Shown here one piece after another: positions 1-49,472 of a stretch of DNA of 64,000 bases. Below the pieces are notes generated by a model. The model was not told the DNA's origin, ran no database searches, and was given only the letters and a program-made list of their open reading frames with translations. Numbering within the stretch: position 1 is the first letter of the stretch; each line of letters starts with the position of its first letter. Source of the stretch: an uncultured Gammaproteobacteria bacterium (GTDB taxonomy: Bacteria; Patescibacteriota; Microgenomatia; Levybacterales; GWA1-39-11); the NCBI GenBank assembly GCA_964485575.1, contig CAZAJO010000008.1, positions 921 to 64,920 on the forward strand. Reading direction: 5' to 3'. The position numbers were made by a program, and so were the translations under genes.

Positions 1-3000
1 CAACATTTCCATTTGTCCCAAGAGTTGAAACCTGAGTCAGGTTACTTAATAAGATTTGGCCGGATCCATTTGGCGCGATGGTAAGATTTTCATTTGTCCC
101 GGTTGTGATATCTGTTGATACTCCATTGAACGTTAGAGTACCTGTTGTCGTTATGGCACCAGAACTTACTGTTCCGATATTAGTAAGGTTACCTGATGCA
201 TCAATTCTTCTGACTCCATTTGTCTGGATATCTGTGACTCCATTTATTGAAGAGGCAGAAAGTGTTGCTGTTGTACCATTGTCAACGAGTGTAAGCAAAG
301 TATTTGGTGATCCTTCAGCATCCTTTATCGTTAAGGTTCCATTGTTCCCTAATGTTGAAAGCGTAATAGTTGGTGTCGTATTTGAAAGTGTCAGGGGTGA
401 GATGCCTGATAATGTGACAGTACCTGACGCGTCAAGCGTTGTTACCCCGCTTACAGCACCGGCATTTGTGATCCCACCATTATTGTTGTTAAATCCACCG
501 GTGATTGAAGCACCCCCTGCTGATACTGTTAGACCTCCGGTACTTACCGTCAAAAGCCCACCGATAGTTTGAGCAGTTGTAAAGTTATTATTTTGGCCTT
601 TGTACGCAACATTAGATAAGGTACCGGTTGTGTTTATATTGGCGCCATTAACCTGAAGTTGAGAGAGAGCATTAATTGTGTCTACTGAAAGTGTAGCAAC
701 TGTGCCGTTGTCAACGAGAGATAACAATGTATTTGGTGAACCGGCTGAGTCTTTTATAGTAAGGGTTCCAGCTGCATCTCCTGCGCCAACGGTAACAACT
801 GGATTCGTGTTTGAAAGGATGATTGGCGTAGCAGATGAGAACGTATTCGTGTTGGTGAACGTATTTGCCTGGTTAAGATACGCTACGTTTGTGAGAGTTC
901 CAGCAGTATTTATATTAAGTCCATTAAGCTGTATAGCGGTTATCGCATTGAGAACATCAGTCTGAACAGTACCAGAAGCTGTTATATTTGTAGCGCCAGC
1001 TATTGCACCCGTGTTAGTGATTCCACCTGTGTTGTTATTTATACCTCCTGTTATGTTGGCACCTCCCGCAGTCGCTACAAACCCATTAGCAGCAGTTATT
1101 GTTCCAGTTCCGGTTGTTACGATATTGCCTGAGGTCGTCAGATTGCCATTCTCATTTATGGCAAGAGTAGCCGAACCACTTGATTGGATCTGTAAAGCGT
1201 TTTGGATCGATGCATTCGTGTCATTAATGACAAGAGCTGCAGAGCCTGTTCCGGCGTTGGTTATTGTAAATTGTCTAGAGTTGAGGTTTGCAAGAGTAAA
1301 GTCAATGTTTCCTTCATTGTCTGTTGCTGAGATAGTGTTTCCGGCCTCATAAGCTTGTTGCAACGTAACATTGTTAACGTTTGCATTACACGAGGCAATT
1401 TGATTTGAAGCATTTCGACAAAGCCCTGAAGTCCCGTTAGTGCCTAAAGTAGGTACCTGTACAAGATTACTCAAAATTATTTCTCCTGTTCCATTTGGAG
1501 CAATTGTTAGATTCTCATTTGTTCCGGTCGTGATATCTGTACTCACGCCATTGAAGGTAAGCGTTCCGGTCGTAGTTATTGCACCAGAGGATACTGTACC
1601 GATATTAGTGAGGTTGCCTGAAGCGTCTATTCTTGTTGTACCATTTGTTTGTACATTTGATGAAGCATTGACTGTCCCTACAGTCAAAGTACCAACTGTT
1701 CCATTGTCTACTAATGTCAACAATGTATTAGGGGAACCGTTTGAATCATTAATCGTTAAAGTTCCAGCCGCGTTTCCGGCTCCCAAAGTTATAACCGGGT
1801 TAGTGTTTGAGAGAACAACCGGTGTTGCTGAAGAGAACGTATTCGTGTTTGTGAAAGTATTGGCTTGATTGAGATACGCAACGTTTGTGAGAGTTCCAGC
1901 TGTGTTGATGTTAGCCCCATTGAGTTGGATTGCAGTAATGGCATTTAGGATATCCGTTTGGGTAGTACCTGAAGCAGTTATATTAGTTGCACCGGTAATT
2001 GCACCAGTATTTGTTACTCCACCATTATTGTTATCGATTCCACCAGTAATTGAAGCCCCACCGGTTGTTACTGTTAAGGCTCCCCCAATGGTCTGACCAA
2101 CGGTGAAGTTATTGTTTTGACCCTTGTAAGCAACGTTTGTGAGCGTTCCAGTTGTATTGATATTAGTACCGTTGAACAAGAATCCGGTAACAGCATTTAC
2201 GCTTCCGGTAAGAGACAAGTTACCGACAGTACCTGCATCAGTCAATGAGAGCAGGGTATTTGCATCACCATCATTTATTGTAAGCGTGCTATCAACTCCA
2301 GCAGTTCCCAAAATTGCTGTTGGAGCGGCATTGGTAAGTGTTAACGGAGATGCTCCAGAAAGAGTGACTGTCCCTGAAGCGGTGATATTGGTCGCACCAG
2401 CAATAGCACCAGTATTTGTGATTCCACCGGTGTTATTGTTGATACCACCTGTTATGGATGCACCACCTGATGATACAGTCAAAAGGCCAGCGATTGTTTG
2501 ACCGACAGTGAAGTTATTGTTCTGACCCTTATAAGCAACATTTGAGAGGGTACCCGTTGTGTTGATATTTGTTCCGTTCAACAAGAATCCGGAAACTGCA
2601 TTTATTGTTCCTGAAAGCGATAGGTTTCCAACAGTCCCAGCATCTGTTAATGTCAGAAGAGTATTTGGTGAACCTTCAGCATCTTTTATTGTCAGTACCC
2701 CGTTGTTTCCGATTGTTGCAAGAGTAACAATCGGCGCGTTGTCAGAAAGTGTTACCGGATTTGCATTCGAGAATATATTATTTTGTGAGAAAGTATTTTG
2801 TTGATTCTGATAAGCGACGTTTGTGAGTGTACCAGCTGTATTGATATCTGTCCCGTTCAATTGTATGACAGACGTTGCATTGACTGTTGCTCCCTGAATC
2901 GTTCCTGAAGCAGTTATGTTGGTTGCACCAGTGATCGCCCCCGTGTTTGAGATACCACCAGTATTGTTATTAATTCCACCGGTTATTGATGCTCCACCTG

Positions 3001-6000
3001 ATGATACCGTCAAAAGACCTGCAATAGTCTGACCAACTGTGAAATTATTGTTCTGATTTCTATACGCAACGTTTGTAAGAGTACCTGCTGTGTTTATATC
3101 AACACCATTCAATTGAAGTGATGTTGTTGCACTTATTGATGATACAGATAGCGATCCACCATCACCATAGTCAGTTAATGTCAACAGATTATTTGGAGAA
3201 AGCTCAGCATCTCTTATTGTAAGGACTCCATTTGTACCCTGGGTTGCAAGTGTCACTATTGGTGATGCGTTTGAGAGTGTGAGAGGGGATACCCCTGACA
3301 ATGTGACAGTACCGGATGCAGCAATAGTTGTAGCACCTGAAATTGCACCTGCGTTTGTTAAGCCACCGGTGTTGTTATTTATCCCTCCTGTTATTGATGC
3401 ACCACCGGTCGACACAGTAAGAAGTCCAGCGATAGTTTGACCAACGGTAAAGTTATTATTCTGGTTCTTATATGCGACATTTGTGAGCGTGCCTGCGGTA
3501 TTTATACTTGTTCCGTTCAACTGGAACGCAGAAACAGCATTTATAATATCCCCCTCAATAGTTCCAGAGGCTGTGATATTGGTTGCCCCGGTTATTGCAC
3601 CGGCATTTGTTATACCACCCAAATTATTGTCAAGACCGGCAGAGATACTTGCTCCATTCGTCGCTGAAAGTAGTCCCGCAGCTGTTATTGCACCAGTTCC
3701 GGTTGTCACGATATTTCCTGAAGTCGTTAGATTTCCAAGCTCATCAATCGTCAAAGTAGAAGTTCCATTAGATTTGACATTGATAGCAATGCCTCCCGTT
3801 CCGGCAGCGGTGTCGTTGAGAATAAAGGCATTAGCTGTTCCAGCATTTGTAAGGGTGAATGATGTGGGAGAGCCAAGGCCACCTGCTAAAGTAAAGGCGA
3901 TATTTCTTCCCGTAGTTGTCGTTATAGTATTTCCATTGTCATATGCTGTCTGAAGCGTAGCGGTTGCAGCATTACAAGTAGCAATTTGGTTCAGAGCATT
4001 TCGACATAGCCCAATAGTGCCGTTCGTCCCCAAAGTTGGAACTTGTGTAAGATTGCTAAGCACAATTTGACCTGTGCCATTAGGGGTCAGTGTCAGATCT
4101 TCATTCGTACCGGTGGTTATGTCTGTCGAAACCCCATCAAAAGTAAGAGTACCGGTTGTGGTTATTGCACCCGATGAGATTGTTCCAATGTTGACCAAAT
4201 TGCCTGATGCATCAATCCTGTCTGTACCTGAGGTCTGGACTGAGGTTGTTGCATCAAGTGTCCCTCCTTGAATAGTGCCACTTGCTGTGATGTTTGTAGC
4301 TCCAGAGACGGCACCAGTGTTTGTGATTCCACCTGCATTATTATTTATTCCACCGGTAATATTAGCCCCGCCTGCACTCACCGTCAACAAACCTCCGATT
4401 GTCTGACCGACTGTGAAGTTGTTATTTTGACCCTTATAAGCGACATTTGATAGTGTTCCAGTTGTATTGATGTTTGTCCCGTTGAATTGTAGCGCTGTCG
4501 TTGCATTTACATTAGCAACAGTTAAAGTTCCGTTTGTTCCATTATCTGTTAAGGTGAGCAATGTATTTGGAGAGACTTCAGCATCTTTGATAGTGAAAAC
4601 GCCATTGTTTCCAGCTGTTGCAAGGGTAAGTACTGGCGCATTGTTTGACAACGTCAGAGGGGAAGCGCTAGATAAGGTAACAGTTCCTGAAGCATCAATT
4701 GTAGTTGCCCCGCTTATCGCCCCGGCACTTGTTATTCCGCCTGTATTGTTGTTTATTCCCCCAGTTATTGAAGCACCACCTGTTGTGACTGTAAGTGCTC
4801 CACCGATGGTCTGACCGACGGTGAAGTTATTATCCTGTCCTTTGTAGGCGACATTTGAAAGTGTTCCTGTAGTGTTAATGCTTGTTCCATTGAGAAGGAA
4901 AGCAGTAGTTGCGTTGATATTGGCTACGGCAAGAGTTGCAGTTGTACCATTATCGGTAAGAGTGAGAAGTGTATTTGGTGCTCCATTTGAATCTCTTATT
5001 GTCAGAACCCCGGCAGCATTTCCGGCTCCTAACGTCACAATAGGATTTGTATTACTAAAAGTAAGTGGACTTGCGCTTGAAAGAGTAACAGTACCTGATG
5101 CATCAATCGTGGTTGCCCCGGCAATAGCTCCGGTTCCGGTTATACCACCTGCATTATTTGCAATTCCACCGGTAATGTTTGCTCCACCGGCATTGATTGT
5201 AAGACCACCAGTTGTGATCGTCTGAAGAGCAGTGAAAGTATTGGCCTGATTTTGGTATGCAACATTTGTGAGTGTACCTGCAGTATTTATGTCTGTACCA
5301 GCAAGTTGAATAACGCTTGTTGCATTAAGAGTCGCACCTTGAATAGTGCCACTGGCTGTGATGTTAGTAGCACCTGTAATGGCGCCGGTATTGGTGATAC
5401 CACCGGTATTATTGTTGATACCCCCCGTTATTGATGCGCCACCTGATGATACAGTTAAAAGACCAGCAATTGTCTGACCTACAGTGAAATTATTGTTCTG
5501 GCCTTTGTAAGCAACGTTAGTAAGAGTACCTGTCGTATTTATATTTGCACCATTTATTTGAAGAGCAGAAAGAGCATTAACTGTCCCAACGGTAAGGGTT
5601 GCATCTGTTCCATTGTCAACCAAAGTCAACAACGTATTTGGTGAACCGGCAGAATCTTTAATAGAAAGCGTGCCATTGGCGTCTCCTGCCCCGAGTGTTA
5701 TATCTGGTGCCGAATTGGTTAACGTTATTGGCGCGGCTGATGAAAGGGTCACGGTTCCAGAAGCTGCAATTGTTGTCGCACCAGCAATTGCACCTGTGCT
5801 TGTTATGCCGCCTGCGTTATTATTGATACCACCATTGATTGATGCGCCACCAGCACTTACCGTAATACCACCAGTCGTAACAGTCAAAAGACCTCCAATT
5901 GTTTGTCCTACGGTAAAGTTATTATTTTGACCCTTGTAAGCAACGTTAGTAAGAGTACCTGTCGTATTTATATCTGTTCCTCCGAGTGTAAATCCTGTAC

Positions 6001-9000
6001 TTGCATTGACAGTTCCAACAGATAAGGTGCCGACAGTTCCATTGTCTGTGAGCGTAAGAAGTGTATTTGGAGACCCTTCAGCATCAGATATTGTCAGAGT
6101 TCCATCTGTACCTGCAGTTGCCAGCCTTATATTTGGATTTGCATTTGAAAGAGTGAGAGGTGATGACCCGGTAAGAGTTGCTGTTCCGCTTGCCGTTAGG
6201 TTTGTTATTCCTGTAATTGAACCTGTGTTTATTATTCCTCCTGAATTGTTATTAATACCACCCTTAAGGTATGCTCCTCCTGAATTAACAGTGAGAGCAC
6301 CTGCAGACGTGATTGTTCCGGTAGCAGTTGTAGTGATATTTCCGCTAGTTGAAATATTTCCAAGCTCTGAAATCGACAATTTTGAAACACCAGCAGATTG
6401 AACATCAAGAGCAACCCCTCCGGTTCCAGCATTGGTGTCATTGATGACAAATGCATTGGCAGACCCGGCATTCGTTAGAGTGAATTGAGTAGAAAGACCA
6501 GAGTCTAATGTGAAGTCAATGTTGCGTCCAGAGGTCGTAAGGATAGTGTTACCGGCATCATATGCTTGCTGTAATGTAACGGCACTTGCGTTTGCTGCAC
6601 AAGTAGAGAGTTGGTTGCTCGCGTTTCGGCAAACTGTTGTTAACCCGGTCGTTGCTGAAAGGGTAGCAACCTGGACGTAGTTGTTTAGGAGTATTTCGCC
6701 CGTTCCATTTGGTGCCAAAGTAAGGTTCTCATTTGGTCCTGTTGTGATATCGGTTGGAACTCCATTAAATGTTAAAACACCACTTGTTGTTATTGCACCT
6801 GAGCTTATTGTATTGATATTTGTCAGGTTACCGATTACATCTAATCTTGTTACTCCATTAGTTTGAATATTATTTGTAGCATTGAGGGTAGCTCCCTCAA
6901 TTGTGCCACTGGCTGTAATGTTTGTTGCACCTGTTATTGCACCGGTATTTGTGATTCCACCTGCGTTATTGTTGATGCCTCCTGTTATTGATGCACCTCC
7001 TGTTGTGACAGTAAGTGCTCCACCGATGGTTTGACCGACGGTGAAGTTGTTATCTTGACCCTTATAAGCAACGTTTGAAAGCGTACCGGTTGTATTAATG
7101 CTTGTTCCATTGAGAAGGAAAGCTGTAGTTGCGTTGATATTGGCTACGGCAAGAGTTGCAGTTGTACCATTATCGGTAAGAGTGAGAAGTGTATTTGGTG
7201 CTCCATTTGAATCTCTTATTGTCAGAACCCCGGCTGCATTTCCAGCTCCAAGTGTGATTATTGGAGTTGTATTTGAAAGGGTTAATGGCGAACCACTGGA
7301 AAGTGTTACCGTTCCAGAAGCAGCAATCGTTGTTGCACCGGCGATTGCACCGGTATTTGTTATACCACCTACATTATTGTCTATACCCCCAGTGATATTT
7401 GCTCCACCAGCACTGATGGTAAGACCGCCCGATGATATTGTTTGAAGAGCGGTGAAAGTATTGGCTTGATTTTGGTATGCAACGTTTGTGAGAGTTCCTG
7501 CTGTGTTGATATCAACTCCATTAAGTTGAATAACTGACGTACCATTAATGGTTGCTCCTTGAATAGTGCCACTGGCTGTGATGTTAGTAGCACCAGTAAT
7601 GGCGCCGGTATTGGTGATACCACCGGTATTATTGTTGATACCTCCAGTTATAGATGCTCCATCCGCACTGATAGTGAGTCCGCCGGTTGTGATCGTCTGA
7701 AGAGCCGTAAAGGTATTTGATTGATTTTGGTAAGCAACGTTTGTTAATGTACCTGCAGTGTTGATATCAACCCCACCGATCTGCAATGTCGTTCCAGCAT
7801 TTACTGATCCTGTAACAGAAAGATTCCCGACAGAACCAGCATCTGTCAAGGTTAGCAGAGTATTTGGAACACCTGCAGAATCTTTGATCGTAAATGTTCC
7901 ATTGGCATTTGCAGCACCCAATGTAACAATCGGATTCGTGTTACTAAATGTAAGAGGGGAGCCAGCAGAGAGTGTTACAAGTCCAGATGCTCCGATTGTT
8001 GTAGCACCTGAGATAGCACCAGTGTTTGTGATGCCACCTGTGTTATTGTTAATTCCTCCAGTTATTGATGCGCCACCCGTTGTAACCGTTAAAGCTCCAC
8101 CGATAGTCTGACCCACGGTGAAGTTGTTATCCTGTCCTTTGTAGGCGACATTACTAAGAGTGCCGGTTGTGTTGATGTTTGTTCCTCCTAGTAAGAATCC
8201 GTTCGCTGCATTTATTGTTCCTGTAACCGAAAGATTTCCAACTGTACCGGCATCGGTAAGAGTCAAAAGTGTATTTGGAGAACCTTCTGCATCTTTTATT
8301 GTTAATACTCCATCAACTCCAGCAGTTGCCAGAGAGATATTTGGAGTCCCGTTGGTAAGAGCAAGAGGATTTGCCCCTGACAATGTAACGACGCCTGATG
8401 CATCAATTGTTGTTGCTCCGGATATTGAAGCCGTGTTTATTATTCCGCCATTGTTGTTGTTGATACCACCAACGACTGAAAGACCACCAGCAGAAATAAT
8501 CTGTGCAGCCGTAAATGTATTTGATTGATTTTTGTATGCAACATTGGACAAAGTGCCTGCTGTGTTAATATTTGTTCCATTCAATTGAATTGCAGTAATT
8601 GCATTGAGTATATCGGTCTGAGTCGTTCCACTTGCTGTAATATTTGTAGCACCCGTAATTGCACCCGTATTTGTAATGCCTCCGGTATTATTATTAATAC
8701 CTCCAGTTATATCGGCTCCACCAGCTTGAATAGCAAGTCCCCCTGTTGTGATTGTTTGACCTGCTGTGAAAATATTAGCTTGGTTGAGATAGGCAACATT
8801 CGTAAGCGTACCTGCAGTATTTATGTTGGTTCCATTCAATAGATAACCGGTCCCAGCATTTATTGTTCCTGTGACTGAAAGATTGCCAACGGTACCGGCG
8901 TCGGTAAGTGTTAGAAGTGTGTTGGGGGAACCTGCAGAATCCCTTATTGTCAAAACACCATTCGCATTACCAGCTCCTAATGTCACTATCGGATTGGTAT

Positions 9001-12000
9001 TACTAAAAGTTAATGGAGATGCAGCAGATAAAGTAACAAGTCCTGATGCTCCAATTGTTGTTGCACCGGAGATAGCACCGGCATTTGTGATACCACCAGT
9101 ATTATTGTTGATGCCCCCGGTTATTGACGCTCCACCCGCACTTACGGTTAATGCTCCTGCTGATGTTATTGTTCCAGTTCCAGTTGTTGCGATGTTTCCA
9201 GATGTTGTGATGGTTCCAAGTTCTGTGATTGTCAAAGCTGAAGCGCTTGCAGACTGTATTTCAAATGCGATTCCACCTGATCCGGTACGTACGTCATTTA
9301 TGACAAACGCGTTCGCGCTTCCGGCATTCATGAGAGTGAAGGACGTTGGAGTTCCCGAATCCGTGTTTTCATCGTAAAGCGTAAAGTCGATATTTCGACC
9401 GGAGGTTGTAAGAATTGTATTCCCAGCATCATAAGCAAGTTGAAGCGTAACGCCATTTGAATTTGGTGCACATGCAGACAAGAAGTCACCTGCATTGCGG
9501 CACAAAGCCGTCGAGCCGTCAGGTGAAGCAAGAGTTGGAATCTGTATCGTATCATTGAGGTTGATAACTCCCGATCCATTAGCAACGAGTGTAAGATCTT
9601 CATTGCTTCCAGTTGTAATGTCTGTTGCAGCACCAGTTATAGTAACGGTTCCTGCGATATTTTGTGCAGTTGTGAAATTGTTGTTCTGGCCTTTGTAAGC
9701 AACATTTGTGAGAGTTCCGGTTGTGTTGATGCTTGTGCCATTCAATTGGAACACTGAGGTAGCATTGATAGTCGCACCTTGAATTGTGCCTGAAGCGGTG
9801 ATGTTTGTCGCTCCTGTTATTGCACCCGTGTTTGTGATACCACCGGTATTATTGTTGATGCCTCCGGTGATATTTGCACCACCAGCATTTATTGTAATAC
9901 CTCCTGTATTTATCGTCTGGCCGATGGCAAAAAGATTTGCCTGATCAAGATATGCAACGTTTGAAAGAGTTGTACCAACATTTATGTTGGTACCGTTCAG
10001 TAAAAATCCGGTTGTTGCATTGATGTTGGCAACTGCAAGTGTTGCATTTGTTCCATTATCGGTAAGTGTCAGAAGGGTATTTGGTGACCCTTGAGCATCT
10101 GCAATAGTGAGGACACCATCAACTCCGGTGGTTGCCAATGTTAGAACTGGTGCTGCATTTGAGAGAGTAAGCGGGGAAGCACCTGATAATGTCACGACAC
10201 CCGAAGCAGTGATATCTGTTACTCCAGAAATAGCTCCTGTGCTTGTTATTCCACCAGCGTTATTATTGATACCTCCGGTTATTGATGCGCCTCCGGTTGT
10301 GACGGTTAAAGCTCCACCGATGGTTTGGCCAACCGTGAAGTTGTTGTTTTGTCCTTTGTATGCGACGTTTGTGAGAGTTCCGGTTGTGTTGATGTTTGTT
10401 CCGTTCAATAGATATCCTCCAACTGCATTGATTGTTCCAGTCACTGAAAGATTTCCTACTGTACCAGTATCGGTTAATGTAAGAAGCGTGTTTGGAGAAC
10501 CCTCTCCATCTCTTATCGTGAGCGTACCATTGGATCCTGCTGCAGCCACAGTTATTGCAGAGGTGGTCGCAGTAAGTGCGAGTGGGGTACTACTTGAGAG
10601 TGTAACAAGGCCAGATGCATCAATCGTTGTTGCACTGCCAATAGCGCCGGTATTTGTTATACCTCCATTGTTGTTATTAATACCCCCAGTGACGGATAGC
10701 CCACCTGATGAGATTATTTGTGCTGCAGTGAATGTATTGGATTGATTCTTGTATGCAACATTTGTGAGAATACCTGCGGTATTTATATCAGTTCCGTTCA
10801 GCTGAAGAGCAGTAATAGCATTGATGATATCTCCCTGAATCGTTCCTGACGCAGTAATATTTGTAGCACCGGTTATAGCACCTGTGTTTGTGATACCACC
10901 AGTATTGTTGTTAATTCCACCGGTTATTGATGCGCCACCGGTTGTGACGGTTAAGGCTCCACCGATGGTTTGGCCAACTGTGAAGTTATTGTTTTGTCCT
11001 TTGTACGCAACGTTTGTGAGAGTTCCGGTTGTGTTGATGTTAGTTCCACCCAAAAGTATTCCTGTTCCTGCATTTATGGACCCTGTCACTGAAAGATTAC
11101 CTGTAGTACCGGTGTCTGTTAATGTTAGAAGGGTATTTGGAGCTCCTTCTGCATCTTTTATAGTAAGGACTCCATTCGTGCCAGCTGTAGCAAGAGTAAT
11201 TACTGGAGCACTATCTGAAAGAGTTAGAGGTGCGGCATTTGAAAGGGTCACAACTCCAGAGGCGTCAATTGAAGTTGCGCCACTTATCGCACCGGCATTT
11301 GTGATACCCCCTGCGTTGTTGTTGATACCACCGGTAACATCAAGCCCACCGGCTTGGATTGCAAGTCCCCCAGTCGTAATGATCTGACCGGCAGTGAAGG
11401 TATTTGATTGGTTTTTATATGCAACGTTTGTGAGGGTGTTTGCAGTATTTATATTTGCACCATTCAATTGAAGAGCACTTGTCGCATTGATCGTGCCAAC
11501 TGTCAAAGTTGCAACAGTTCCGTTGTCAACAAGAGTAAGAAGTGTATTTGGTGTTCCATTTGAATCTTTGATTGTAAGCGTACCGGCAGCATTTCCAGCA
11601 CCCAAAGTGATGATTGGAGTAGTGTTTGAAAGCGTAAGTGGGGAGGCTCCTGATAGCGTCACTACACCTGAAGCAGCAATTGTAGTTGCTCCGGCGATTG
11701 CACCTGTGTTTGTGATGCCACCATTATTATTGTTGATTCCACCAGAAATGTTTGCACCCCCCGCAACAACAGTTATTCCGCCGGTATTGATGGTTTGTCC
11801 CAAGGTGAATGTATTAGCAGTATCAAGGTACGCAACGTTTGATAATGTACCACCGGTATTTATATTTACACCGTTGAGTTGAATTGCTGTTATCGCATTT
11901 AATATATCTGTTTGCGTCGTTCCTGATGCAGTAATATTTGTAGCACCGGTTATGGCACCCGTGTTTGTGATGCCACCAGTGTTATTGTTAATTCCACCTG

Positions 12001-13350
12001 TTATTGAAGCGCCACCTGTTGTGACGGTTAAGGCTCCACCGATGGTTTGGCCAACAGTGAAGTTGTTGTTTTGTCCTTTGTACGCAACGTTTGTGAGAGT
12101 TCCGGTTGTGTTGATGTTTGTTCCGTTGAGTTGGAATCCACTAACAGCATTTATTGTGCCACTTATTGCAAGATTTCCAACGGTACCAGCGTCGGTAAGC
12201 GCAAGAAGGGTATTTGGTGACCCTTCTGCATCCCTGATCCTCAACACTCCATTATTTCCTGCGGTTGCAAGCGTAATATCAGGAGCACTGTTAGACAGAG
12301 TGAGTGGGGCAGCCGAGGAGAAGGTGTTGGTATTAGTAAATACGTTTGCTTGGTCTAGATAGGCAACATTTGATAGTGTTCCACCCACATTTATACTTGT
12401 TCCGTTGAGCTGGAATGCTGTCAATGCGTTGATTGTATCTCCCTGAATAGTTCCCGACGCAGTGATATTTGTTGCTCCTGTTATTGCACCGGTGTTTGTG
12501 ATTCCACCATTGTTGTTGTTGATTCCACCTGTTATTGAAGCGCCCCCCGCACTAACAGTAAGGGCACCTGCTGAGGTTATAGTTCCAGTTCCAGTTGTCG
12601 CGATGTTACCTGATGTTGATATAGTACCTAGCTCAGAAATTGTTAACGCAGAGACACTTGCAGACTGTACCTCAAAAACAATTCCACCCGATCCAACATT
12701 TGAGTCATTGATCACAAAAGCGTTTGCGCTTCCTGCATTTGTAAGTCTTAACTGAGTCGTAAGACCGGAATCAAGAGTGAAGTCGATGTTCTTTCCTGCA
12801 GTTGTAAGGATCGTATTTCCACCGTTATATGCTGATTGTAAGGTTACTCCAAATGCTGTAGGGTCACATTGTGAAAGTTCATTCGTTGCATTTTGACAAA
12901 GGACGGTAAAGCCTTGAACACCTGCAAGTATTGGAATTCCAACTGTATCGTTAAGTACAATCTTACCTGTACCATTTGCTAGCAGTGTAAGATCCTGATT
13001 TGATACTGTTGTTATATCTGTTGAAACTCCACTAAATGTAAGTGTACCTGTGGTGGTGATAGCCCCAGAAGCTATTGTTCCAATGTTGACAAGATTTCCT
13101 GATGCGTCAACCCTTTGCGTTCCATTCGTCTGTATCGAAGTTACTGCATTTAGTATATCCCCCTGGCTAGTGCCAGATGCTGTTATGTTTGTTGCTCCTG
13201 TAATTGAACCAGTGTTTGTTATACCACCTGTGTTATTGTTGATTCCACCGTTGATAGATGCCCCTCCAGCTGTAACAAATAGTCCATTAGCTGAAGTTAT
13301 CGTTCCTGAACCGATTGTCTGGATGCTATTTGAAGATGAAATGTAACCAC
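1..13350 (-). repeat. intragenic repeat zone 3: super-repeats of one Cys-loop module plus 2-9 short NVAY-type beta-strand units
   Basis: C-x9-C pairs lie at 12866/12896, 9470/9500, 6599/6629, 3974/4004 and 1388/1418. About 28 copies of the antisense signature of NVAY(K/L/Q)(G/N)QNN.FT are spaced about 250-285 or 390-430 nt apart. Each carries GGINNNTGGITNTGAI.GATNITASG. Segments 4875-5029 and 7095-7249 are 152/155 identical. Confidence 0.85.
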
Positions 13351-16300
13351 TCGTTGAGGCATTTCCGCTTTCATCAATGGTAAGTCTTCTATTTCCACCA
13401 GACTGGATTTCAAGAGCTACTTGGTTTGGAGCGGCATTATTATCATTGATAATAAATGCCGATGCTGTTCCTTCGTTTGTTAAAGTAAGTGAGGTTGCAG
13501 CATTGAGACCGGAAGCAAGAGTAAAGTCGATGTTTCTACCCGAGTTTGTAAGAATTGTATTTCCGTTGTCATAGGATGATTGCAAGGTGCCTGCTGATGA
13601 GCCAACGTCGCAGAGAACTACTTCATCATCTCCATTAGTACAAAGAGGACTTCCAACAACAGTAACTAAGTTCTCTATGGTTACCGTACTGTTTGCTGCA
13701 AGTGTAGTGAATTTTCCTGATGAGCGCGTAGTGTTTCCGATTGGTGTATTGTCTATAGATCCTCCCGTTATAACAGCGTTACTTGAAGAGAGATTGTTTG
13801 CAGTAACTGCACCAACGAGATTTACCGTATCTGTTCCGGATCCGATATTAATAAAGTCTGGACTCGTGTTGTCTGTTCCGATATTGACGGTGTTACCGGT
13901 CGACAACGTTCCAATATTGATTGAGCCATTGGCTGATGCTCCGGCTCCTGCATTAATTGTGACTGATCCACCGGTTGATCCTCCGGCAGTAGATGTCCCA
14001 GCAACTAGTCTGAGATTTCCACCCGTAGCATCAACAGTAGAGCTTGCCGGATTGATAGTGATATCAGTTCCACCAACGAGGGTAGTAATGTCTGATGTGT
14101 TGTCTCCGGCAAGATATATAACTCCTGCCTCAGACACCTTAAGGGTTGATGCGCCATTTGACTGAAGATCAAAGAATGTACCGCCTCCCCCAGCTGATGT
14201 GTCATTGAGAATGAATGCACTTGCAGTACTTTGATTTTCCAAAGTGAAAGATGTTGGAAGATTAAGACCCGGAGCCAATGTGAATGCAATATTTCGTCCG
14301 TCATTTGTAAGGATTGTATTTCCATTATTGTATGAGGACTGAAGGGTTCCGGTTCCTGATCCTATTGAACATTTGATTATGTTATCGAATGAATCTATAC
14401 ATAGCGCAGTTCCTGAGCTTGTCGTCAAATTTTCGATAAGGACAGTGCTATTGGCAGCAAGTGTTGTGAATGCACCAGAAGAGCGGACGGTAGCACCAAC
14501 GCTCGTTCCATTTATAGTTCCTCCAGTAACAGTCACTCCGCTTGAGTTGAAGTTGTTAGCTGTAACTGACCCGACAAGGTTTATGGTGTCTAACAAAGAC
14601 CCTATATTGACAATATCGGCCAAGGTATCATTTGTTGCTATATTTATGACATTTCCCCCGGTTCCGGTTCCTATATAGATAGTCTTTGCACTATTACCAA
14701 TACCTAGATTAATGTCTCCTGTCGTTCCTGTATCAAGAGTTAGGGAATTGGAACCTGTAGCAGATATCGTTCCGACTCCAGCAAAAGTTAGATCGGTTGC
14801 ACTAACGCCAATTGTGTCAAGACTAATGACGCCCGTTAATGCTCCAAGCGTTGTGACATTTAATCCTCCGTTTGATGTGACCGCAAAAGTACCGGTAGCA
14901 TTGCCAATTGCTACATTTCCTGTTCCGGTTGTTGCGATGTTTACATCGGATGCACCTGAAGTTCCAAGATTTGTCGTACCTGTTGATGAAAGAGTTGTAA
15001 AGGCTCCCGTTGATGGGGTTGTTGCACCAATTGCAGTACTATTTATACCTGTTGCGGTTGCTGTGAAGTTGCCTGAAGTGATCAGTAAATTGTTGACTCC
15101 GGCATTGATAGATGATGCAGACAAACCTGAAAGACTGAGTACCCCGGAAGTTGCGGTAAGATTGATTGCCCCGGTCGTCAGGGTCAACCCATTTGATGCT
15201 GTCAAAAGACCAGCAGATGTTATAGTACCGGTTCCGGTTGTTGCTATATTTCCACTTGTTGTAAGATTTCCAAGCTCATTTATGGTCAAAGTTGCAGATC
15301 CGGAGGACTGAATCTCAAGAGCAGTATTTGTATTCTCGTTATTGTCGTTGATGATAAATGCAGAAGCTGTCCCTTGGTTTGTGAGAGTCAATGAGGTCGT
15401 CTGATCTTGACCCAATGTAAAGTCAATACTTCTTCCAGGAGTCGTTGTTATAGAGTTCCCAGTGTTGTAAGCAGCCTGCAGTCCAAATGGTGCACCGTTA
15501 CAGTACGCAAGGTTGTTACTTACGTCCAAACAAAGGGTGTTCCCATTCTGAGTCTGTAGACCATTGATCTGGATTCTCTCATTAGATGTTGTATTGAACA
15601 CTACGTTGTTACCGGTTGATGGTGTAAATACAGCAGATCCTGAAGCATCAAATGAATTTCCATTTGTGATAATCACATTTCCGTTGAAAGTAGAGATCCC
15701 AGCAACATCTAGAGTACTTCCAAGAGTAGTAGCTCCAGTCCCAACGCTAAAGGTATTGCTACCGGTGACCGTTGTATTCCCGTTCAACGAAACGTTACCG
15801 GTACCCGTGGAGAACGTGTATGCTCCAACTTGGGTAATATTATTATTGAAAGTTCCAACTCCATTGACAGTCAATGCACCTCCAAGAGTCGTAAGACCGG
15901 TTCCTACGGTAAATGTATTTGCTCCCGTTACTGATGTATTTCCATTCAGAAGAGTCAGTGCATTAATGTTGAGGTTCCCAATCCCATTTAATGGGCTTAG
16001 TGTGATTTCACCTGTTGTGTCACCACCGATGGTGAGTGCACTAAGCTCTGTGGTCTGAATAGAACGTGGTGCTCCTGCAAGTGTCAAATTACCAGAGATA
16101 GATGCATTACTGGTCGTCGTAAGCAAAGTGAAATTACCGGTTGAAGGAGTAGTTACTCCAATTGCAGTACCGTTGATACCCGTTGCGGTAGTATTGAAAT
16201 TATTTGATGTGAAAGTCAAATTGTTTCCTCCGGTGTTGATACTTGATGCAGAAAGCCCAGAAAGATTTAATGTTCCCGAAGTTGCGGTTAGATTGAGTGC

Positions 16301-19300
16301 TCCTGTTGTTAATGTCAGTCCGTTTGATGCTGTCAAAAGACCTGCAGAGGTTATTGTTCCAGTGCCGGTTGTAGAAATATTGCCACTAGTTGTTAGATTT
16401 CCAAGCTCATTGATAGTGAGTGTAGCAGATCCCGAGGACTGGATCTCAAGGGACGTATTGGTATTTGCATTGTTATCGTTAATGATAAATGCACTAGCTG
16501 TACCAAGGTTTGTTAGTGTGAGTGAAGTTGTCTGATCCTGACCCAATGTGAATGCCAAATTTCGTCCAGGAGTTGTCGTTATCGTATTTCCTGTATTATA
16601 TGCAGCTTGAAGTCCGAAAGGTGCTCCGTTACAGTACGCAAGGTTGTTACTTACGTCAAGACATAGAGTATTACCATTCTGAGTCTGTAGACCATTTATC
16701 TGTATCCTCTCAGTACCAGTAGTATTGAATACTACATTGTTCCCAGACGAAGGAGCAAAAACAGCAGCGCCTGAAGCGTTGAATGAATTACCTGTTGTTA
16801 TAAATACGTTACTGTTAAATGTTGCAGTGCCCGCAACATCAAGAGTGCTTCCAAGAGTTGTAGCACCGGTTCCGACAGTAAAGGTATTGGATCCGGTAAC
16901 TGAAGTGTTTCCATTGAGTGAAACATTACCAGTTCCTGTTGAGAATGTGCCTGTCCCTGTTTGGGAAATGTTGTTGGTAAATGTGCCGACTCCATTAACT
17001 GTTAGTGCTCCCCCGAGTGTTGTAAGCCCGGTTCCAACAGTTAAAGTGTTCGTACCTGTAACTGATGTATTACCGTTTAGAGTGATTGCGCCAGTTCCAG
17101 TTGTGAATGTGCTAGCACCTACCTGGCTTATGTTGTCATTAAATGTGGATACACCTAAGACATTCAATGTACCGTTGAATGCTGAATTTCCATTGACCGT
17201 AAAGTTACCTGCACCTGAAAGAGGGGATACCACAATATTTCCTGTCGTATTTCCACCAATTGTAAGAGTGTTGTTCTCGGTTGTCTGGATCGAGCGGGGA
17301 GCACCGGCAAGAGTTAGATCTCCAGAGAATGATGCAGTACCAGTTGTTGTTAGATTTGTGAAATTACCCGTCGATGGAGTAGTAGCACCGATGGCAGTGT
17401 TGTTTATGCCAGTAGCAGTGACGGTAAAATTACCGGATCCGATGAGTAAATTATTTCCTCCAAACTGTAGTGATGAAGCAGATAGACCAGACAAATTGAG
17501 TGCTCCTGATGTACCGGTGATATTAACAGCACCAGTCGTTACGCTGAGTCCGTTTGACGCTGTCAATAGCGCATTAGATGTTATAGTGCCTGTTCCGGTA
17601 GTTGCTATATTTCCACTCGTTGTAAGATTTCCAAGCTCGTTTATAGACAAAGTTGCAGATCCCGAAGACTGGATTTCAAGAGATGTATTAGTATTGGCAT
17701 TATTGTCATTGATGATAAATGCTGAAGCAGTACCCAGATTAGTCAGGGTAAGAGATGTTGTCTGATCTTGACCCAATGTAAATGCAAGGTCACGACCCGG
17801 AGTTGTCGTTATCGTGTTTCCGGTGTTGTATGCTGCTTGAAGTCCAAATGGAGCACCGTTACAGTATGCAAGATTATTGCTTACATCCAAACAAAGGGTG
17901 TTCCCATTCTGAGTCTGTAACCCATTGATTTGAATTCTTTCATTTGAGGATGTATTAAATACGACATTATTGCCGGTAGAAGGTGTAAATACAGCTGATC
18001 CTGAAGCATTGAATGAGTTACCAGTTGTTACAAATACGTTGCCATTAAATGTTGCTGTACTAGCAACTGTAAGCGTACTGCCCAACGTTGTCGCACCAGT
18101 TCCGACTGAGAACGTATTGCTTCCTGTGACAGATGTATTTCCATTCAAAGAAACTGTTCCAGTCCCTGTTGAGAATGTACCGGTGCCAACTTGGCTAATA
18201 TTGTTGTTGAATGTTGCAGCCCCTTGTACACTCAAAAGGCCAGTGATGTCGGTGTTACCAGCAATCTGCACAAGTCCAGTCGTATTACCACCGATAGTCA
18301 GAGTGTTAAAGTCGGTCGTCTGAATTGAGCGTGGGGCACCTGCAAGAGTCAGATTCCCAGAGAATGAGGCATTCCCCGTAGTTGTGAGTGTAGTGAAATT
18401 ACCGGTGGAAGGGGTAGTGGCTCCTATTGCAGTATTGTTGATTCCGGTCGCAGTTGTATTGAAGTTTGATGAGGTGAATGTCAGAGCATTTGCACCTGAA
18501 TCAAATGTAGACGCACCAAGTCCAGTAAGAACAATTGCGCCTGAAGAACCAGTTATGTTTACAGCTCCAGCTGTGACTGTAAGGCCATTTGAAGCAGTTA
18601 ATAATCCGTTAGATGTTATTGTTCCCCCTGAGGTTGTGAGGATATTGTCAATAGTTGAAAGAGTTCCATTCTCACTTATTGTAAGCGTAGCCGAACCACT
18701 ACTTTGAATAGACAGTGCATTTTGGATAGAAGCATTGGTGTCATTGATAACAAATGCTGCACTTCCGGTTCCGGCATTGGTGAGCAGGAACTGACGTGAT
18801 GAAAGATCAGCAAGTGTAAAGTCAATATTCCCATGAAGATCGTTAGCAACTATGGTATTTCCTGAATTGTATGCCTGCTGTAGGGTAACATTAAGAGCGT
18901 TTGATGAACAAATAGAAAGCTCGTTTGCCCCATTTCGACAAACAACTGTCGCACCAACGGTTCCTGAAAGATTTGGAATCCTTGTTATAGTATTTAGTAC
19001 TATTTGTCCCGTTCCGTCAGGTGAAAGAGTAAGATCCTCATTTGAATTGGTTGTGATATCTGTTGCAGCACCTGAGAATATGAGCCCTGTAGATCCTATC
19101 GATTTATTTGAAAGAGTCTGGGTCTGATTAGCAAAAATGAATGTGTCATCTGCAGTGAGTGCTGGAATGGTGGCAAATCTTGACGCAGAGGGAGCAAGAG
19201 ATGTGATTGTCGTAGTATTAGTCGTTCCAAGTACTACCTGGTTTGTTGTGTTTGTGAGATTTAGAGACGCAAATGTTGGCGATGATGTCGCAGCGATACT

Positions 19301-22300
19301 TTGAGGTAATGAAAGAGAAATAGTACCAGACCCATTAGCCACGAGAACTTGATTTGAAGTACCCGTAATAGTATTCAAACTAAACCCTGACCCATTCCCT
19401 ATGAGAAGAGCTCCATTTGGAGCAGCAGAACTATCCACCCCGGTTCCACCTCTCAAAGGTGCGAGTTGTTGTTCTGAGGCAAGAACACCTGATGCGTTAT
19501 TGATGACAACTCCAGCTGTTGTAAACGGAGATATGGTGACAGATGTATTTGCCGTAACTGTTGTGAATGCTGCAGTTGACGGAGTAGTGGCTCCAATAGC
19601 AGTGCTATTGATTCCAGTTGCCGTGACGTTTAAGTTTGCTGCTCCGATGAGTAAATTATTTCCCCCAAACTGTAGAGATGAGGCAGATAGACCTGAAAGA
19701 CTGAGGGCTCCTGACGTGCCTGTGATATTGACTGCCCCTGTCGTTACGGTAAATCCATTTTGTGCTGTAAGAAGTCCTGCGGATGTTATGGCACCGGTAC
19801 CAGTAGTCAGGATATTTCCGCTAGTCGAAAGGTTACCAACAGACGTTAAGTTTCCGTTCTCAGAGATAGTAAGAGTTGCGCTACCACTTGATTGAGCTTG
19901 GAATACATCCTGAAGTGAGGCATTCGTGTCGTTTATGACAAAAGCAGCTGACCCAGTCCCTGCATTTGTAAGCAAAAATTGACGGGATGAAAGGTCAGCA
20001 AGAGTAATGTCGATATTACCTTCACCATCGGTTGCGCTAATAGTGTTTCCTGCTTCGTAAGCCAGTTGGAGCGAAATATTAGCAGCATTTGCAGGACACT
20101 CAGTTATCTCGTTTGTTATATCATCACGGCACAAGGTGGTCGCGCTTAGTCCAGCAGCTGGAAGATTAAGTAGTTTGGTTATATTTGAAAGGACGATCTG
20201 ACCCGTTCCATCAGGGGTAATAGTAAGGTCTTGATTCGATACGGTTGTGATATCGGTCCCTACACCATTAAAGGTTAGTGACCCTGTCGCTGTGATTGCT
20301 CCCGTTGACAAGCTATTGCTTGTGATCGAACCAGTTGTTATAAGATTTCCATTCTCAGAAATCGTGAGCGTTGCTGAACCGCTACTTTGAATAGATAGAG
20401 CATTTTGGATAGAGGCATTCGTGTCGTTTATGACAAATGCTGCTGACCCAGTACCGGCATTGGTAAGGAGGAATTGGCGAGATGAAAGGTCAGCAAGAGT
20501 GAAATCGATATTACCTTCACCATCGGTTGCGCTTATAGTGTTTCCTGCTTCGTATGCCAGTTGAAGCGAAATATTAGCAGCATTTGCCGGACACTCAGTG
20601 ATTTCATGAGAAGAATCATCACGGCAAAGTGTTGTTCCACTTACACCTGCTAATGGTAAGTTCTCTAATCGTGCAATATTTGAAAGTACGATTTGACCGG
20701 TTCCATTAGGTGTAAGCGTAAGATCTTCGTTACTGACCGTAATCAGGTCATTTGCAGCTCCAGAGAACACGAGTCCTGATGCTCCAATAGTTTTGTTAGT
20801 CAACGTTTGCGTTTGTGCCGCAAAAATAAAGGTGTCATCAAACGTGAGCGCTGGAAGTGTTGCAATACGTGGAGCACCCGGTGCTGGAGAATTTATTGTT
20901 GTAGTGTTTATTGTTCCTAATGACAATTGGTTTGTCGTTGCAGCAAGTCCGAGATTTCCTGCATATGAAAGTGTCGCAGCGTTGTCTCCCGCATTATTCA
21001 CGAATGCCAATTGGTATGTCGGTGCAGTTGTTAAGATCTGATTTTGGAGACTGAATGTCAGGTTATTTGACGAAGCCCCATTCCAGTAGGATCCTTGTAA
21101 TGACAATAGGTTTGAATTATTCAATGTTGCTCCACTCGTTGATGTGGCAAGTCTCAAAAGAGAGAGGGTATCAACTCCTGTCTGGTCGCCGACATTAAAA
21201 GCTGTCAGAGAAGTTATCGTCGTACCATCGTCTGTAAAATTAGAATCCCCGATATTTGATCCCGTTACGGTAAACTTGGCAAGTCTATTAAGAGTTCCAG
21301 CTCCTCCGACAACTCCACCGGCTCCAGCACAGTTTCCGACAGTAAGACAGACTGTCCCGTCATAGTCTGGAATACTTATTGTCCTCAAAGTTCCAGTTGT
21401 TATTTGACTAAGATCAAATAAGAATTGCTTTGTATTATCACCGTCATCCTGGAATGTGATTGAATTATCTGTAAGTAGTTTGTTTGTTAGAGTCTGGCTT
21501 TGGTTGGCAAAGATAAATGTGTCATTTGCACTAAGTCCTGGGATCGTAGCAATCCTTGAAGCTGCTGGCGCAACCGAGGAGATAGTCGTTGTGTTCCCAG
21601 TTCCCAAAACCAATTGATTTGTTGCCGCAAGGGAAGTAAGAACTCCTGCAGTCGTTAGATTCCCGTTCTCATTAATGGTAAGAGTAGCAGAGCCACTGCT
21701 TTGAATAGATAGGGCATTTTGTACGGACGCATTTGTATCATTTATGACAAATGCAGCACTTCCTGTACCTGCGTTTGTGAGCAGGAACTGTCGTGATGAA
21801 AGATCTGCAAGAGTTAGTGAAATATCACCAAACGAGTTAGAAGCGCTGATTGTGTTTCCAGCTTCGTACGCTAGCTGAAGGGAAATGTTTGCTGCATTTG
21901 CTGGACATTCGGTGACCTGATGAGATAAATCATCGCGGCAAAGTGTCGTTGCGGCAACACCTGCGACTGGCAGGTTCTCAAGACGCGTGATATTGGAAAG
22001 AACAATCTGGCCGGTTCCATTTGGAGTAATGGTAAAGTCCTCGTTGGCAAGCGTTGAGATGTCTGTTGCAGCACCAGAGAAAACAAGACCAGTCGTACCA
22101 ATGGTCTTATTGGTGAGGGTTTGAGTTTGCTGCGCGAAAATAAATGTATCATCGACGGTAAGTGCTGGTAATGTTGCAATTCGTGGGGCAGAAGGCGCAA
22201 CCGAACTTATTGTTGTCGTGTTTCCAGATCCCAAAACCAATTGATTGGTTGCCGCTTGCGCTGTCAAAGTTGTTGCTGAAAGGATAGACCCGGTTCCGGT

Positions 22301-26883: not shown

Positions 26884-29287
<2,404 letters not shown>

Positions 29288-29290
29288 ATG

Positions 29291-30925: not shown

Positions 30926-31425
30926 TATTGTTTTGGTGGCAATGTCACCATGCCTGACGAGACAAGCATTTCGCTTGTGACTTTTGTAAGGATAGGCCGT
31001 ATCGAAAAGTCCAGATATTTACCACCTGATTTGATAGCAGCGCCTGCAACAAGGGACTTATCTACACTTACTTCAAAAAGGACTTGCTTATTAACATTTA
31101 TGACAAACCATCTTGAGAAAGCTTGTAGTGTCTCTTCTTTAGGCTCAAAAGCGAGAATGAGCGAGATGATAGGAAGACCGGTTATTTTTATCTGTATCTT
31201 CTCTATAAAGTCTTTAATGGCAAGCCGAGACTCTGGATTTACGTTGTTGTTGCGAAGCAATGTCATAAAAGCATCCTTTTTCTTGATCCCAAAATTATCC
31301 AAAAGTGCAGCCTCCGGATTGAACTGAGTCGCAAATATCTTTTGAGAGATAAGGTTGAGGCGGTTTGAGAAATCCTCCGCTTGAGCCTTTGTGTTAAATA
31401 GTTCTGATAGGTCAAGTGTATCCAT
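30925..31425 (-). CDS. atpH: ATP synthase delta (OSCP) subunit
   Basis: Called from position and size. The ATG at 31425 (MDTLDLSELF...) sits 1 nt after the atpF stop (31427-31429), so it is preferred over the track start at 31461. Confidence 0.7.
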   Translation of the reverse strand: MDTLDLSELFNTKAQAEDFSNRLNLISQKIFATQFNPEAALLDNFGIKKKDAFMTLLRNNNVNPESRLAIKDFIEKIQIKITGLPIISLILAFEPKEETLQAFSRWFVINVNKQVLFEVSVDKSLVAGAAIKSGGKYLDFSIRPILTKVTSEMLVSSGMVTLPPKQ

Positions 31426-31426
31426 A

Positions 31427-32161
31427 TTAGTCGAATAATCCGTCTTTTTTAGCTCGTTCAAGTGACTTTATGACTAGATTTTGATGATCCTCAAGTGACA
31501 GTGATTTGTTGAGGATCTCTTGAGCCACTTTCTGAACAATCCCATTACTTGCTTGCTCGATCCTATGCATTTTTGCTGTCTTGTATGTTTCTATTTCCTT
31601 CTCAAGATTGTTCAGTAACGTCTGTCTAAAGTCTCTTATCTGCTGCTGTAGGGCAAGCTCTAATTCACTTGTGACATTCTGAAACCCGCTCAGAGACAGA
31701 GTTGTTATCTGCTTTAAAGAGGCTTGGTAGCTTGCTGTAAAAGCATTTCCCGTGTCATATGCCTCCTTGTGGACATCAACTACTATCTTTTGCAATGCTT
31801 GGTCTAAAGCCATTTTTGAACTCGAGCTCACATTGCCAACGTCAACTACCATCCGCTCCAAAGCATTGTCCAAAGATGCCTTTGAAGTCTGACTGATATA
31901 CTGCGCTCCTGCAAGAACTTGGTTGGCCTGATGGGTCGCAATCTGCATAATCTGATTGGACTGATTGACCGCGTTGTCTAGTATCTGACGCTCGCGGGCC
32001 ATCCCATTGCCGACTATCTCACTGTAGTCAGTTTCGAGCTTATTCTCACGCTTGTCGATGTTTTTTTCTTTATTTCTTACTCCAAGCAAGTAAAAAACAA
32101 CAAAAACGACGATTACCAGGTCAAACACAACACTAATAACCTGGAAGAGCAGGTTGGGCAT
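31427..32161 (-). CDS. atpF: ATP synthase b subunit, long form
   Basis: N-terminal TM helix (LLFQVISVVFDLVIVVFVVFYLL) plus a long coiled coil with an internal duplication (ALDNALERMVVDV / ALDQALQKIVVDV). The ATG at 32161 lies 8 nt after a -10 box. Confidence 0.75.
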   Translation of the reverse strand: MPNLLFQVISVVFDLVIVVFVVFYLLGVRNKEKNIDKRENKLETDYSEIVGNGMARERQILDNAVNQSNQIMQIATHQANQVLAGAQYISQTSKASLDNALERMVVDVGNVSSSSKMALDQALQKIVVDVHKEAYDTGNAFTASYQASLKQITTLSLSGFQNVTSELELALQQQIRDFRQTLLNNLEKEIETYKTAKMHRIEQASNGIVQKVAQEILNKSLSLEDHQNLVIKSLERAKKDGLFD

Positions 32162-32169
32162 ATACATCC

Positions 32170-34238: not shown

Positions 34239-34257
34239 ATATCTACTATAGCAATTT

Positions 34258-35211: not shown

Positions 35212-35217
35212 ACTAAA

Positions 35218-35246: not shown

Positions 35247-35255
35247 ACAATCAAG

Positions 35256-49468: not shown

Positions 49469-49472
49469 ATCA

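Follow-up and report, generated by a model that had tools for sequence, protein, structure and literature searches.

In streptococcal alpha C and Rib, staphylococcal SasG and Aap, and region II of the Marinomonas ice-binding adhesin, whole repeats are nearly identical in DNA and their copy number varies between strains; repetitive surface proteins at large are usually seen as fast-evolving, copy-number-prone and unreliable in assemblies. Titin is a giant protein with super-repeats whose domains show position-specific conservation. Here we describe a repeat array at nucleotides 1-13350 of a 64,000-nucleotide (nt) stretch of contig CAZAJO010000008.1 (the window). It is probably a conserved scaffold of fixed length within a giant gene of the Microgenomates group of Patescibacteria, touched by sporadic gene conversion, and not a hot zone of copy-number change. 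Like the streptococcal, staphylococcal and Marinomonas proteins, its product is large, appears to belong at the surface and is made of repeats of ~80-140 amino acids (aa) that undergo intragenic exchange; unlike theirs, its units are ~64% identical, its synonymous sites are saturated and unit number is equal in three species. As in titin, units are grouped in higher-order blocks, length is fixed, and units in corresponding positions of different species are closer than neighbours within one molecule (72/84); folds and organism are unrelated to titin's, since the protein here is bacterial, membrane-anchored and presumably extracellular, and a ruler function is not evidenced.

The giant proteins of Omnitrophota and other bacteria, of the Archaeovorin, dockerin and RCC1 types (West-Roberts et al., bioRxiv 10.1101/2023.11.21.568195), share with this one a gene of tens of kb, a membrane-anchored and largely extracellular product, a small-celled and probably host-dependent bacterium, and assemblies that fragment in the repeats. 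They differ in domain content: in the 8,704 aa visible here Pfam finds neither HEAT, TPR or glycosyltransferase domains nor dockerin, thrombospondin or RCC1 domains. An N-terminal helix-turn-helix (HTH) and synteny with the atp operon are specific to the present family as against the Omnitrophota giants, in whose description the Candidate Phyla Radiation (CPR) is named only as a known predatory lineage and the words 'Patescibacteria', 'Levybacteria' and 'tail fiber' do not occur. Giant1-5 of Apilactobacillus kunkeei (PMC12863079) are very large extracellular proteins encoded by a ~1.5 Mb genome, their diversity shaped by short intragenic recombination; purifying selection is invoked there for some variants, and extracellular proteins are described generally as accessory and fast-evolving. 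Great size and short intragenic recombination recur in our case, but the gene is syntenic across a bacterial group and its constraint is near that of atpD. Phage tail-fibre proteins (P0003, P0004; L058-L065 of IMG/VR) have a ~30-aa NVAY element in common with every unit of the array; unlike the present protein, the phage carriers are of 480-2,400 aa, hold 1-5 copies, and are without Cys-loop modules and without an HTH and transmembrane (TM) anchor.

Architecture of the array in three lineages

The array is hierarchical, a Cys-loop module followed by n short units, as the initial annotation had it, and both motif positions and unit parsing bear this out. Cys-loop motifs (C-x9-C) stand at nt 12898, 9502, 6631, 4006 and 1420, each within a module of ~230 aa that is followed by its own set of units, with 9, 6, 5, 6 and 2 NVAY motifs respectively. 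The components are as follows.

12478..13171, minus strand: Cys-loop module 1, Cys pair 12898/12868 (motif and module alignment; a little upstream, at 13249, comes the first GGINNN of the array)
9695..12565, minus strand: block 1, nine NVAY units (G-first, P, G, GP, GP, G, GP, GP, G), the same units in CAZEGF and CAZDED
9082..9775, minus strand: Cys-loop module 2, Cys pair 9502/9472 (motif and module alignment)
7064..9154, minus strand: block 2, six NVAY units (unit parsing and relatives)
6211..6904, minus strand: Cys-loop module 3, Cys pair 6631/6601 (motif and module alignment)
4436..6298, minus strand: block 3, five NVAY units (unit parsing and relatives)
3586..4279, minus strand: Cys-loop module 4, Cys pair 4006/3976 (motif and module alignment)
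1874..3676, minus strand: block 4, six NVAY units (unit parsing and relatives)
1000..1693, minus strand: Cys-loop module 5, Cys pair 1420/1390 (motif and module alignment)
602..1084, minus strand: block 5, two NVAY units, complete (unit parsing and relatives)
2..208, minus strand: beginning of a sixth Cys-loop module (1-208 matches 1426-1633 at 74% identity; the module continues in CAZEGF and CAZDED)

The counts of 9, 6, 5 and 6 first proposed stand; the 'at least 2' given for the last block becomes exactly 2, because the sixth module begins before the window edge and block 5 is therefore complete. Units are assembled from two sub-modules, G (GGINNNTGGITNTGAI.GATNITASG) and P (VTLS..SPLTLSN...PNTLLTLTD), and come in three types, G-only (84-85 aa), P-only (92-93 aa) and G+P (131-143 aa), in place of the two lengths described initially. 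Nor does every unit carry the GGINNN...GATNITASG motif attributed to all of them: GGINNN is missing from those at 12080-12358, 2531-2809 and 602-877.

A genome scan with the Cys-loop module alignment gave 55 loci, and two close relatives were used for comparison: CAZEGF010000012.1 (stitched from L022, L003, L007 and L024) and CAZDED010000003.1 (stitched from L009 and L010), CAZEGF and CAZDED for short. Window 1-14374 aligns with CAZEGF as a single gap-free high-scoring segment pair (HSP) at 74.5% identity, and 9-16957 with CAZDED likewise at 77.7%. The 9, 6, 5, 6 and 2 units follow in the same order in all three, their lengths agreeing within 1 aa; a CAZDED block with an apparent count of 4 is explained by a mutated NVAY motif. 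The 4,532 aligned positions include only 1-3 gap columns, with protein identities of 88.5% and 92.1% to the two relatives, whereas identity at 4-fold degenerate sites is 0.375 and 0.414, nearly saturated. By the Nei-Gojobori method the synonymous divergence (dS) between the window and the two relatives is 1.70 and 2.26, and the ratio of nonsynonymous to synonymous divergence (dN/dS) 0.036 and 0.041, beside 0.025 for atpD and 0.009 for atpG between the window and CAZDED. The three are distinct species-level lineages, at dS 1.7-2.3. Across the three genomes the best DNA match of a unit is its positional orthologue in 72 cases out of 84, and a paralogue of the same genome in only 10.

Because the same architecture has been kept over so long an evolutionary distance, interval 1-13350 does not behave, between species, as a copy-number hot zone. 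The initial annotation had argued there for unequal crossover and variable fibre length, and had pointed to unit-number differences among related genomes as the sign to look for; what blocks 1-5 show is a fixed architecture, in effect the outcome that it had itself named as refuting. Its warning of a short-read collapse finds no support in this interval either: no exact repeat is longer than 110 nt, and the order of the array agrees in three independent, colinear assemblies. As these assemblies have different DNA sequences and still agree, a collapse within 1-13350 is very unlikely.

Between species, unit number does change elsewhere in the gene, at a small number of sites. The only large indel relative to CAZDED within the window lies outside the array:

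17006..18394, minus strand: ~410 aa present in the window and absent from CAZDED, one proximal super-unit of ~1.2 kb (1,235-nt diagonal shift; gaps of 345, 50 and 15 aa)

Proximal super-units have modules of CLDVSNNLAYC type, three of which lie in the window. Beyond the left window edge CAZEGF has further blocks of 2, 1, 2, 5, 2, 10 and at least 5 units. Tandem 1,425-nt blocks, each a Cys-loop module with 2 units, start at window 2-1693 and run past that edge. The CAZDED continuation, on a separate contig (L004), has one extra block of a module and 2 units relative to CAZEGF, and its protein is only 73% identical; adjacent 1,425-nt blocks of CAZDED moreover share an exact repeat of 202 nt (equivalents of window 1634 and 209), and the CAZDED contig ends there. 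The tandem blocks at and beyond the left edge are the likelier site of copy-number change or collapse. The giant gene is split over at least two contigs in CAZEGF (L025/L008/L003), CAZDED (L010/L004) and the Levyibacteriota metagenome-assembled genome (MAG) MAG318 (L028/L017), and all these breaks fall outside the part orthologous to window 1-13350. In another assembly (L001; ENA ERZ25039461 contig_104736) a distant homologue appears as a run of short open reading frames (ORFs) on the same strand, with tblastn matches in three frames; this is probably a related giant gene in a long-read assembly riddled with frameshifts.

Near-identical tracts and gene conversion

Distant copies of the units had been described as almost identical at the DNA level. 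This is true of five short in-frame tracts and fails as a general statement, for mean identity between units is 64% in nucleotides and 68% in amino acids. Among 278 self-HSPs of the gene, 249 lie at 60-80% identity and none of useful length reaches 90%; 100-nt windows at least 90% identical are confined to five in-frame diagonals, in tracts of ~150-600 nt. At 4-fold sites identity between units is 0.37 against 0.32 expected from codon usage, that is, saturated. Given 64% nucleotide identity and 4-fold sites so near chance, the units are old and resemble one another through conservation of the protein; the whole-unit near-identity (~95% or more in DNA) of copy-number-variable adhesins is not found here.

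Within the tracts themselves the original observations were accurate. Segments 4875-5029 and 7095-7249 are identical at 152 of 155 positions at an offset of 2220 nt, 110 nt of them in one unbroken run, and belong to a mosaic match of ~600-740 nt; the segments near 10290, 10930 and 12000 form a similar trio whose best 100-nt windows match at 95-98 of 100 positions.

7062..7668, minus strand: mosaic copy A, units 14-15 of block 2, core 7095-7249, probable donor (tract comparison)
4842..5448, minus strand: mosaic copy B, units 18-19 of block 3, core 4875-5029, probable recipient (tract comparison)
10259..10423, minus strand: trio tract T1, at a unit junction (...INTTGTLTNVAYKGQNNNFTVGQTIGGALTVTTGGASITGGINNN) (self-comparison)
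10904..11068, minus strand: trio tract T2 (self-comparison)
11981..12145, minus strand: trio tract T3 (self-comparison)

Synonymous-codon shuffling, a control that keeps protein sequence and codon usage, yields 0.07 exact repeats of 30 nt or more where 10 are observed, and a longest repeat of ~26 nt where 110 nt is observed. As the shuffles do not reproduce the exact repeats, the DNA identity of the tracts is real and goes beyond protein conservation.

Identical codons are clustered and the tracts are specific to lineages, both of which support the intragenic gene conversion that had been proposed. The longest run of identical codons at offset 2220 comprises 36, a length reached in none of 100,000 permutations; for the other three diagonals the corresponding fractions are 2.6e-4 to 1.8e-3. 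Between the paralogous copies 7121-7210 and 4901-4990 identity stands at 98-100% for the window, 80-91% for CAZDED and 71-73% for CAZEGF; either window copy matches its positional orthologue at only 73-93%. Over 4946-4990 copy B of the window is close to copy A of CAZEGF (0.93) and not to copy B of CAZEGF (0.73), which suggests that block 2 was donor and block 3 recipient. The relatives have exact tracts of their own between other unit pairs, of 108 and 64 nt in CAZEGF and of 202, 179, 77 and 74 nt in CAZDED; all three lineages show the effect at the junction trio, the most similar pair differing from one to the next.

Tracts that are lineage-specific, mosaic and closer to a paralogue than to the orthologue argue for conversion as the source of the near-identical patches. 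The hallmarks of concerted evolution, paralogues more alike than orthologues and mosaic differences, are present, but in few units only, since 72/84 still group by position. The pattern supported by these data is one of sporadic, short, non-reciprocal conversion among the most similar units, with unit number unchanged. Conversion between intragenic repeats is, as a phenomenon, ordinary.

The giant gene, its protein and its surroundings

On the minus strand one frame runs without a stop from 26194 to 2 (8,731 codons). Interval 1-13350 is an internal part of this gene and not its end, because the ORF runs past the left window edge.

2..26113, minus strand: giant ORF, probable start ATG 26113, at least 8,704 aa visible, open at the left window edge
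25958..26113, minus strand: HTH of MerR/excisionase type, aa 1-52 (weak but consistent profile matches)
25766..25822, minus strand: sole predicted TM helix, aa 98-116, KTLVLGVLASALFVTGVFA (Kyte-Doolittle)

ATG 26113 is the likely start codon. Comparison with CAZEGF extends the gene at least 16.7 kb beyond the left edge, and the window joined to the CAZEGF continuation gives a composite protein of 14,312 aa; the orthologous ORFs reach at least 10,376 aa in CAZEGF and at least 9,913 aa in CAZDED. The first 52 aa match Pfam HTH_17 (E 4.4e-4; 20.9 bits, below the curated cutoff of 27) and the MerR-like phrog_2474 (E 3.5e-5), and homologues P0006 and P0007 carry precomputed PF12728 (HTH_17) and PF13411 (MerR_1) assignments. 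This HTH is presumably cytoplasmic, and the helix at aa 98-116, the only 19-aa window in 8,704 aa to reach a Kyte-Doolittle value of 1.6 or more, may serve as an N-terminal membrane anchor. The succession of HTH, linker and TM helix is kept in ~20 relatives. It is unusual for a domain of DNA-binding type to be joined to a giant protein that is presumably extracellular, and we offer no explanation for it.

In the remainder of the protein T, G, N, A, L, S and I make up 80% of residues (T 18%, G 14%, N 12%); charged residues are very rare, and His, Trp and Met do not occur. The 38 cysteines fall into 19 pairs with a spacing of 3-11 residues, in most cases 10-11, and every non-cytoplasmic Cys is paired, which suggests putative disulfide loops in a protein predicted to lie outside the cell. 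GC content is 0.44, against ~0.38 in the rest of the window. A horizontal origin was considered as the cause and rejected: GC at third codon positions (0.316) equals that of atpD (0.312) and the excess sits at codon position 2 (Thr, Gly and Ala codons), so that it is an effect of amino-acid composition and not of foreign origin. A segment after a Cys loop at 20400-20700 (aa 1848-1923) contributes to a summed whole-protein Pfam DUF4251 signal of 41.6 bits, in which no single domain passes.

Neither the Cys-loop module nor the units, the proximal region or the C-terminal part of the Levyibacteriota homologue L017 has a family in Pfam, PHROGs or NCBIfam, and profile searches of PDB sequences with the modules gave no matches. 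AlphaFold2 monomer models of the Cys-loop module (11 paralogues) and of a three-unit stretch (4 paralogues) are all-beta, with predicted local distance difference test (pLDDT) scores of 57.7 and 50.2, too poor for fold searches. The unit profile matches only 102 of 1.84 billion representative proteins; as protein-database queries, a whole block returns only 5 partial matches and the N-terminus only 2 short fragments. The C-terminus of L017 (10900-13022) has two copies of a ~190-aa domain (GD.V..D...IPVAL.GRVPVKV...KGD.L..S..GVAMKA), together with a coiled coil and a beta-rich tail, and none of these is matched by anything in Pfam or PHROGs.

The ~30-aa element that ends every unit, LNG..INT.GTL.NVAY.NQ.N.F, also occurs in phage proteins on the 8 viral contigs L058-L065, and in two phage cases a whole P-type unit is present, at 37-48% identity. 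The L064 ORF matches phrog_5668, 'tail fiber', at E 8.5e-26; P0003 adjoins an SU10 adaptor gene, and a phage contig (L002; 10001-12202 and 14524-16725) carries proteins with the NVAY element. What is shared with tail-fibre proteins is this short element: a PHROG search with the window's own units matches none. The word 'fibre' in the initial annotation would thus have some basis, and phages and these bacteria may have exchanged fibre modules.

The atp genes of the window lie at 26884-32167. In at least 17 genomes from several Patescibacteria lineages the giant gene stands directly downstream of atpA-atpG-atpD (loci L010, L012, L014-L016, L018, L020, L025, L027-L033, L035, L036, L039 and L040), and it thus appears to behave as a syntenic core gene. 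Neighbours in the window are ordinary genes of a cell: atpA, atpG, atpD, the delta subunit, a class A penicillin-binding protein and a class I (Trp/Tyr-type) tRNA synthetase; RecG, RNase III, PilM/B/T/C and GyrB are also encoded there. A type IV pilus set occupies 47565-51667 and 56782-60804 (PilM with adjacent small ORFs, then PilB-like, PilT-like and PilC-like), with a TMEM260/PMT-like glycosyltransferase at 53369-55393. Two ORFs of 281 and 330 aa at 33432-35250 have as their only match, a weak one, the XM1 gp53 minor capsid family (E 0.005). tRNA and Rfam scans of the window gave no match.

An exact look-up of the window's AtpD returned no record. Among the MAGs with this synteny, identity of AtpD to that of the window is 80% in Levyibacteriota, which are part of the Microgenomates group of Patescibacteria, 82% in Amesbacteria, 78% in a 'Patescibacteria group' entry, 48% in Daviesbacteria and 46% in Saccharibacteria. 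Many bulk MAGs in ENA titled 'uncultured Gammaproteobacteria bacterium' (L003-L016 and others) carry the Patescibacteria-type locus, their AtpD ~80-96% identical to that of the window; so do a MAG under the label Sulfotelmatobacter and another under Limnocylindrales. To judge from these sequences, the Gammaproteobacteria titles do not seem credible, and the other two labels look wrong.

Weighing the explanations

We consider it probable, then, that 1-13350 is part of a fixed-length scaffold under constraint. The protein would consist of a short N-terminal HTH, one membrane-spanning helix and thousands of Thr/Gly/Asn/Ala/Ser-rich repeat residues, predicted all-beta and with paired Cys, and is most likely a membrane-anchored extracellular fibre or surface scaffold. 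Its array of ~230-aa Cys-loop modules with set numbers of units, each combining G and P in one of three ways, is ancient, and every unit is individually constrained, nearly as much as ATP synthase beta. Occasional non-reciprocal conversion over ~40-200 nt between the most similar units would leave near-identical patches that differ between lineages, and would leave unit number as it was.

Several observations weigh against this account. In other parts of the gene, species do differ in unit number. Positional orthology can be resolved in three lineages only: distant relatives at 38-49% identity no longer align unit for unit, and such placement failed for L011, L006 and L017. The comparison is one between species (a metagenome scan for same-species strains found none, the best match being 57% identical), and rare length variants that selection removes may exist within populations. 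The call of donor and recipient is based on 45-nt windows, both AlphaFold models are of low confidence, the modules match no family or solved structure, and we infer from sequence both that the protein works as a fibre or adhesin and that it lies outside the cell.

That the stretch is nonetheless a recombination and copy-number hot zone, with ongoing unequal crossover and fibre length varying within populations, seems to us improbable. The few near-identical tracts, lying in repeats of common length and motif, are possible substrates for crossover, species do differ at 17006-18394 (~1.2 kb) and by the extra 1,425-nt block of CAZDED relative to CAZEGF, and the relatives' assemblies break within the gene; yet blocks 1-5 keep number, order and length through three lineages at dS 1.7-2.3 with 1-3 gap columns in 4,532, and most unit pairs, at ~64% DNA identity, are poor substrates for homologous crossover. 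Still less probable is an artefact, the array or its identical patches having arisen by short-read collapse or chimeric joining. The splitting of the gene across contigs in CAZEGF, CAZDED and MAG318 would fit it, and the assembly method of the window is not on record; against it, the three assemblies, with k141_ and NODE_ names, are colinear over 14-17 kb with frames intact and dN/dS ~0.04, no exact repeat in the window exceeds 110 nt, and MAG relatives with 'contig_' names, including one contig of 679 kb, have intact ORFs of more than 6,000 aa.

We give least credence, and equally little, to two other origins of the near-identical tracts. Recent segmental duplication, for example of units 14-15 into 18-19, would suit the ~600-740 nt of the offset-2220 match, which covers two or three consecutive units; since both copies stand at the same positions in all three genomes they are older than the split of these lineages, which excludes a recent event, and the high identity comes in short patches specific to the window's lineage, with third positions saturated in the flanks. 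Selection at the nucleotide level, or codon preference on identical peptides, would maintain the tracts with no exchange of DNA. The trio peptide is indeed 100% conserved among its units, and each of the three lineages is affected at this junction, but shuffles that preserve protein and codon usage stop at ~26 nt where 110 is observed, positional orthologues differ at the trio sites (70-86% identity) with a different closest pair in each lineage, and no Rfam RNA element is present. Conversion within a fixed array is the explanation we retain, and the assembly of 1-13350 can be trusted.

A bolder form of the fixed-scaffold account, which we put forward tentatively and think unlikely as a whole, would make the protein an undescribed core organelle component of Microgenomates-group Patescibacteria: a fibre of more than 14,000 aa, tethered by its TM helix and a DNA-binding HTH in the cytoplasm and built of units like those of phage tail fibres, in which unit number is held constant because length or register matters (as in a molecular ruler or a host-attachment scaffold) and blocks are possibly exchanged with phages. 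A protein of that size takes over 42 kb, roughly 3% of a 1.3-1.6 Mb genome, so that a very small genome spends several percent on one gene.

Repetitive surface proteins are expected to evolve fast and to vary in copy number. Here is the opposite case: an array of 4,500 aa whose unit count, order and sequence are conserved across species whose synonymous sites are saturated, under constraint near that of ATP synthase. No unit seems dispensable, an argument for a function in which length or register counts. Of more interest than the repeat phenomenon as such are the gene family and the extreme constraint on it: the unannotated syntenic family defined here, an HTH and a TM helix followed by a giant repeat region, downstream of atpD, gives the study of Patescibacteria cell surfaces a concrete candidate.

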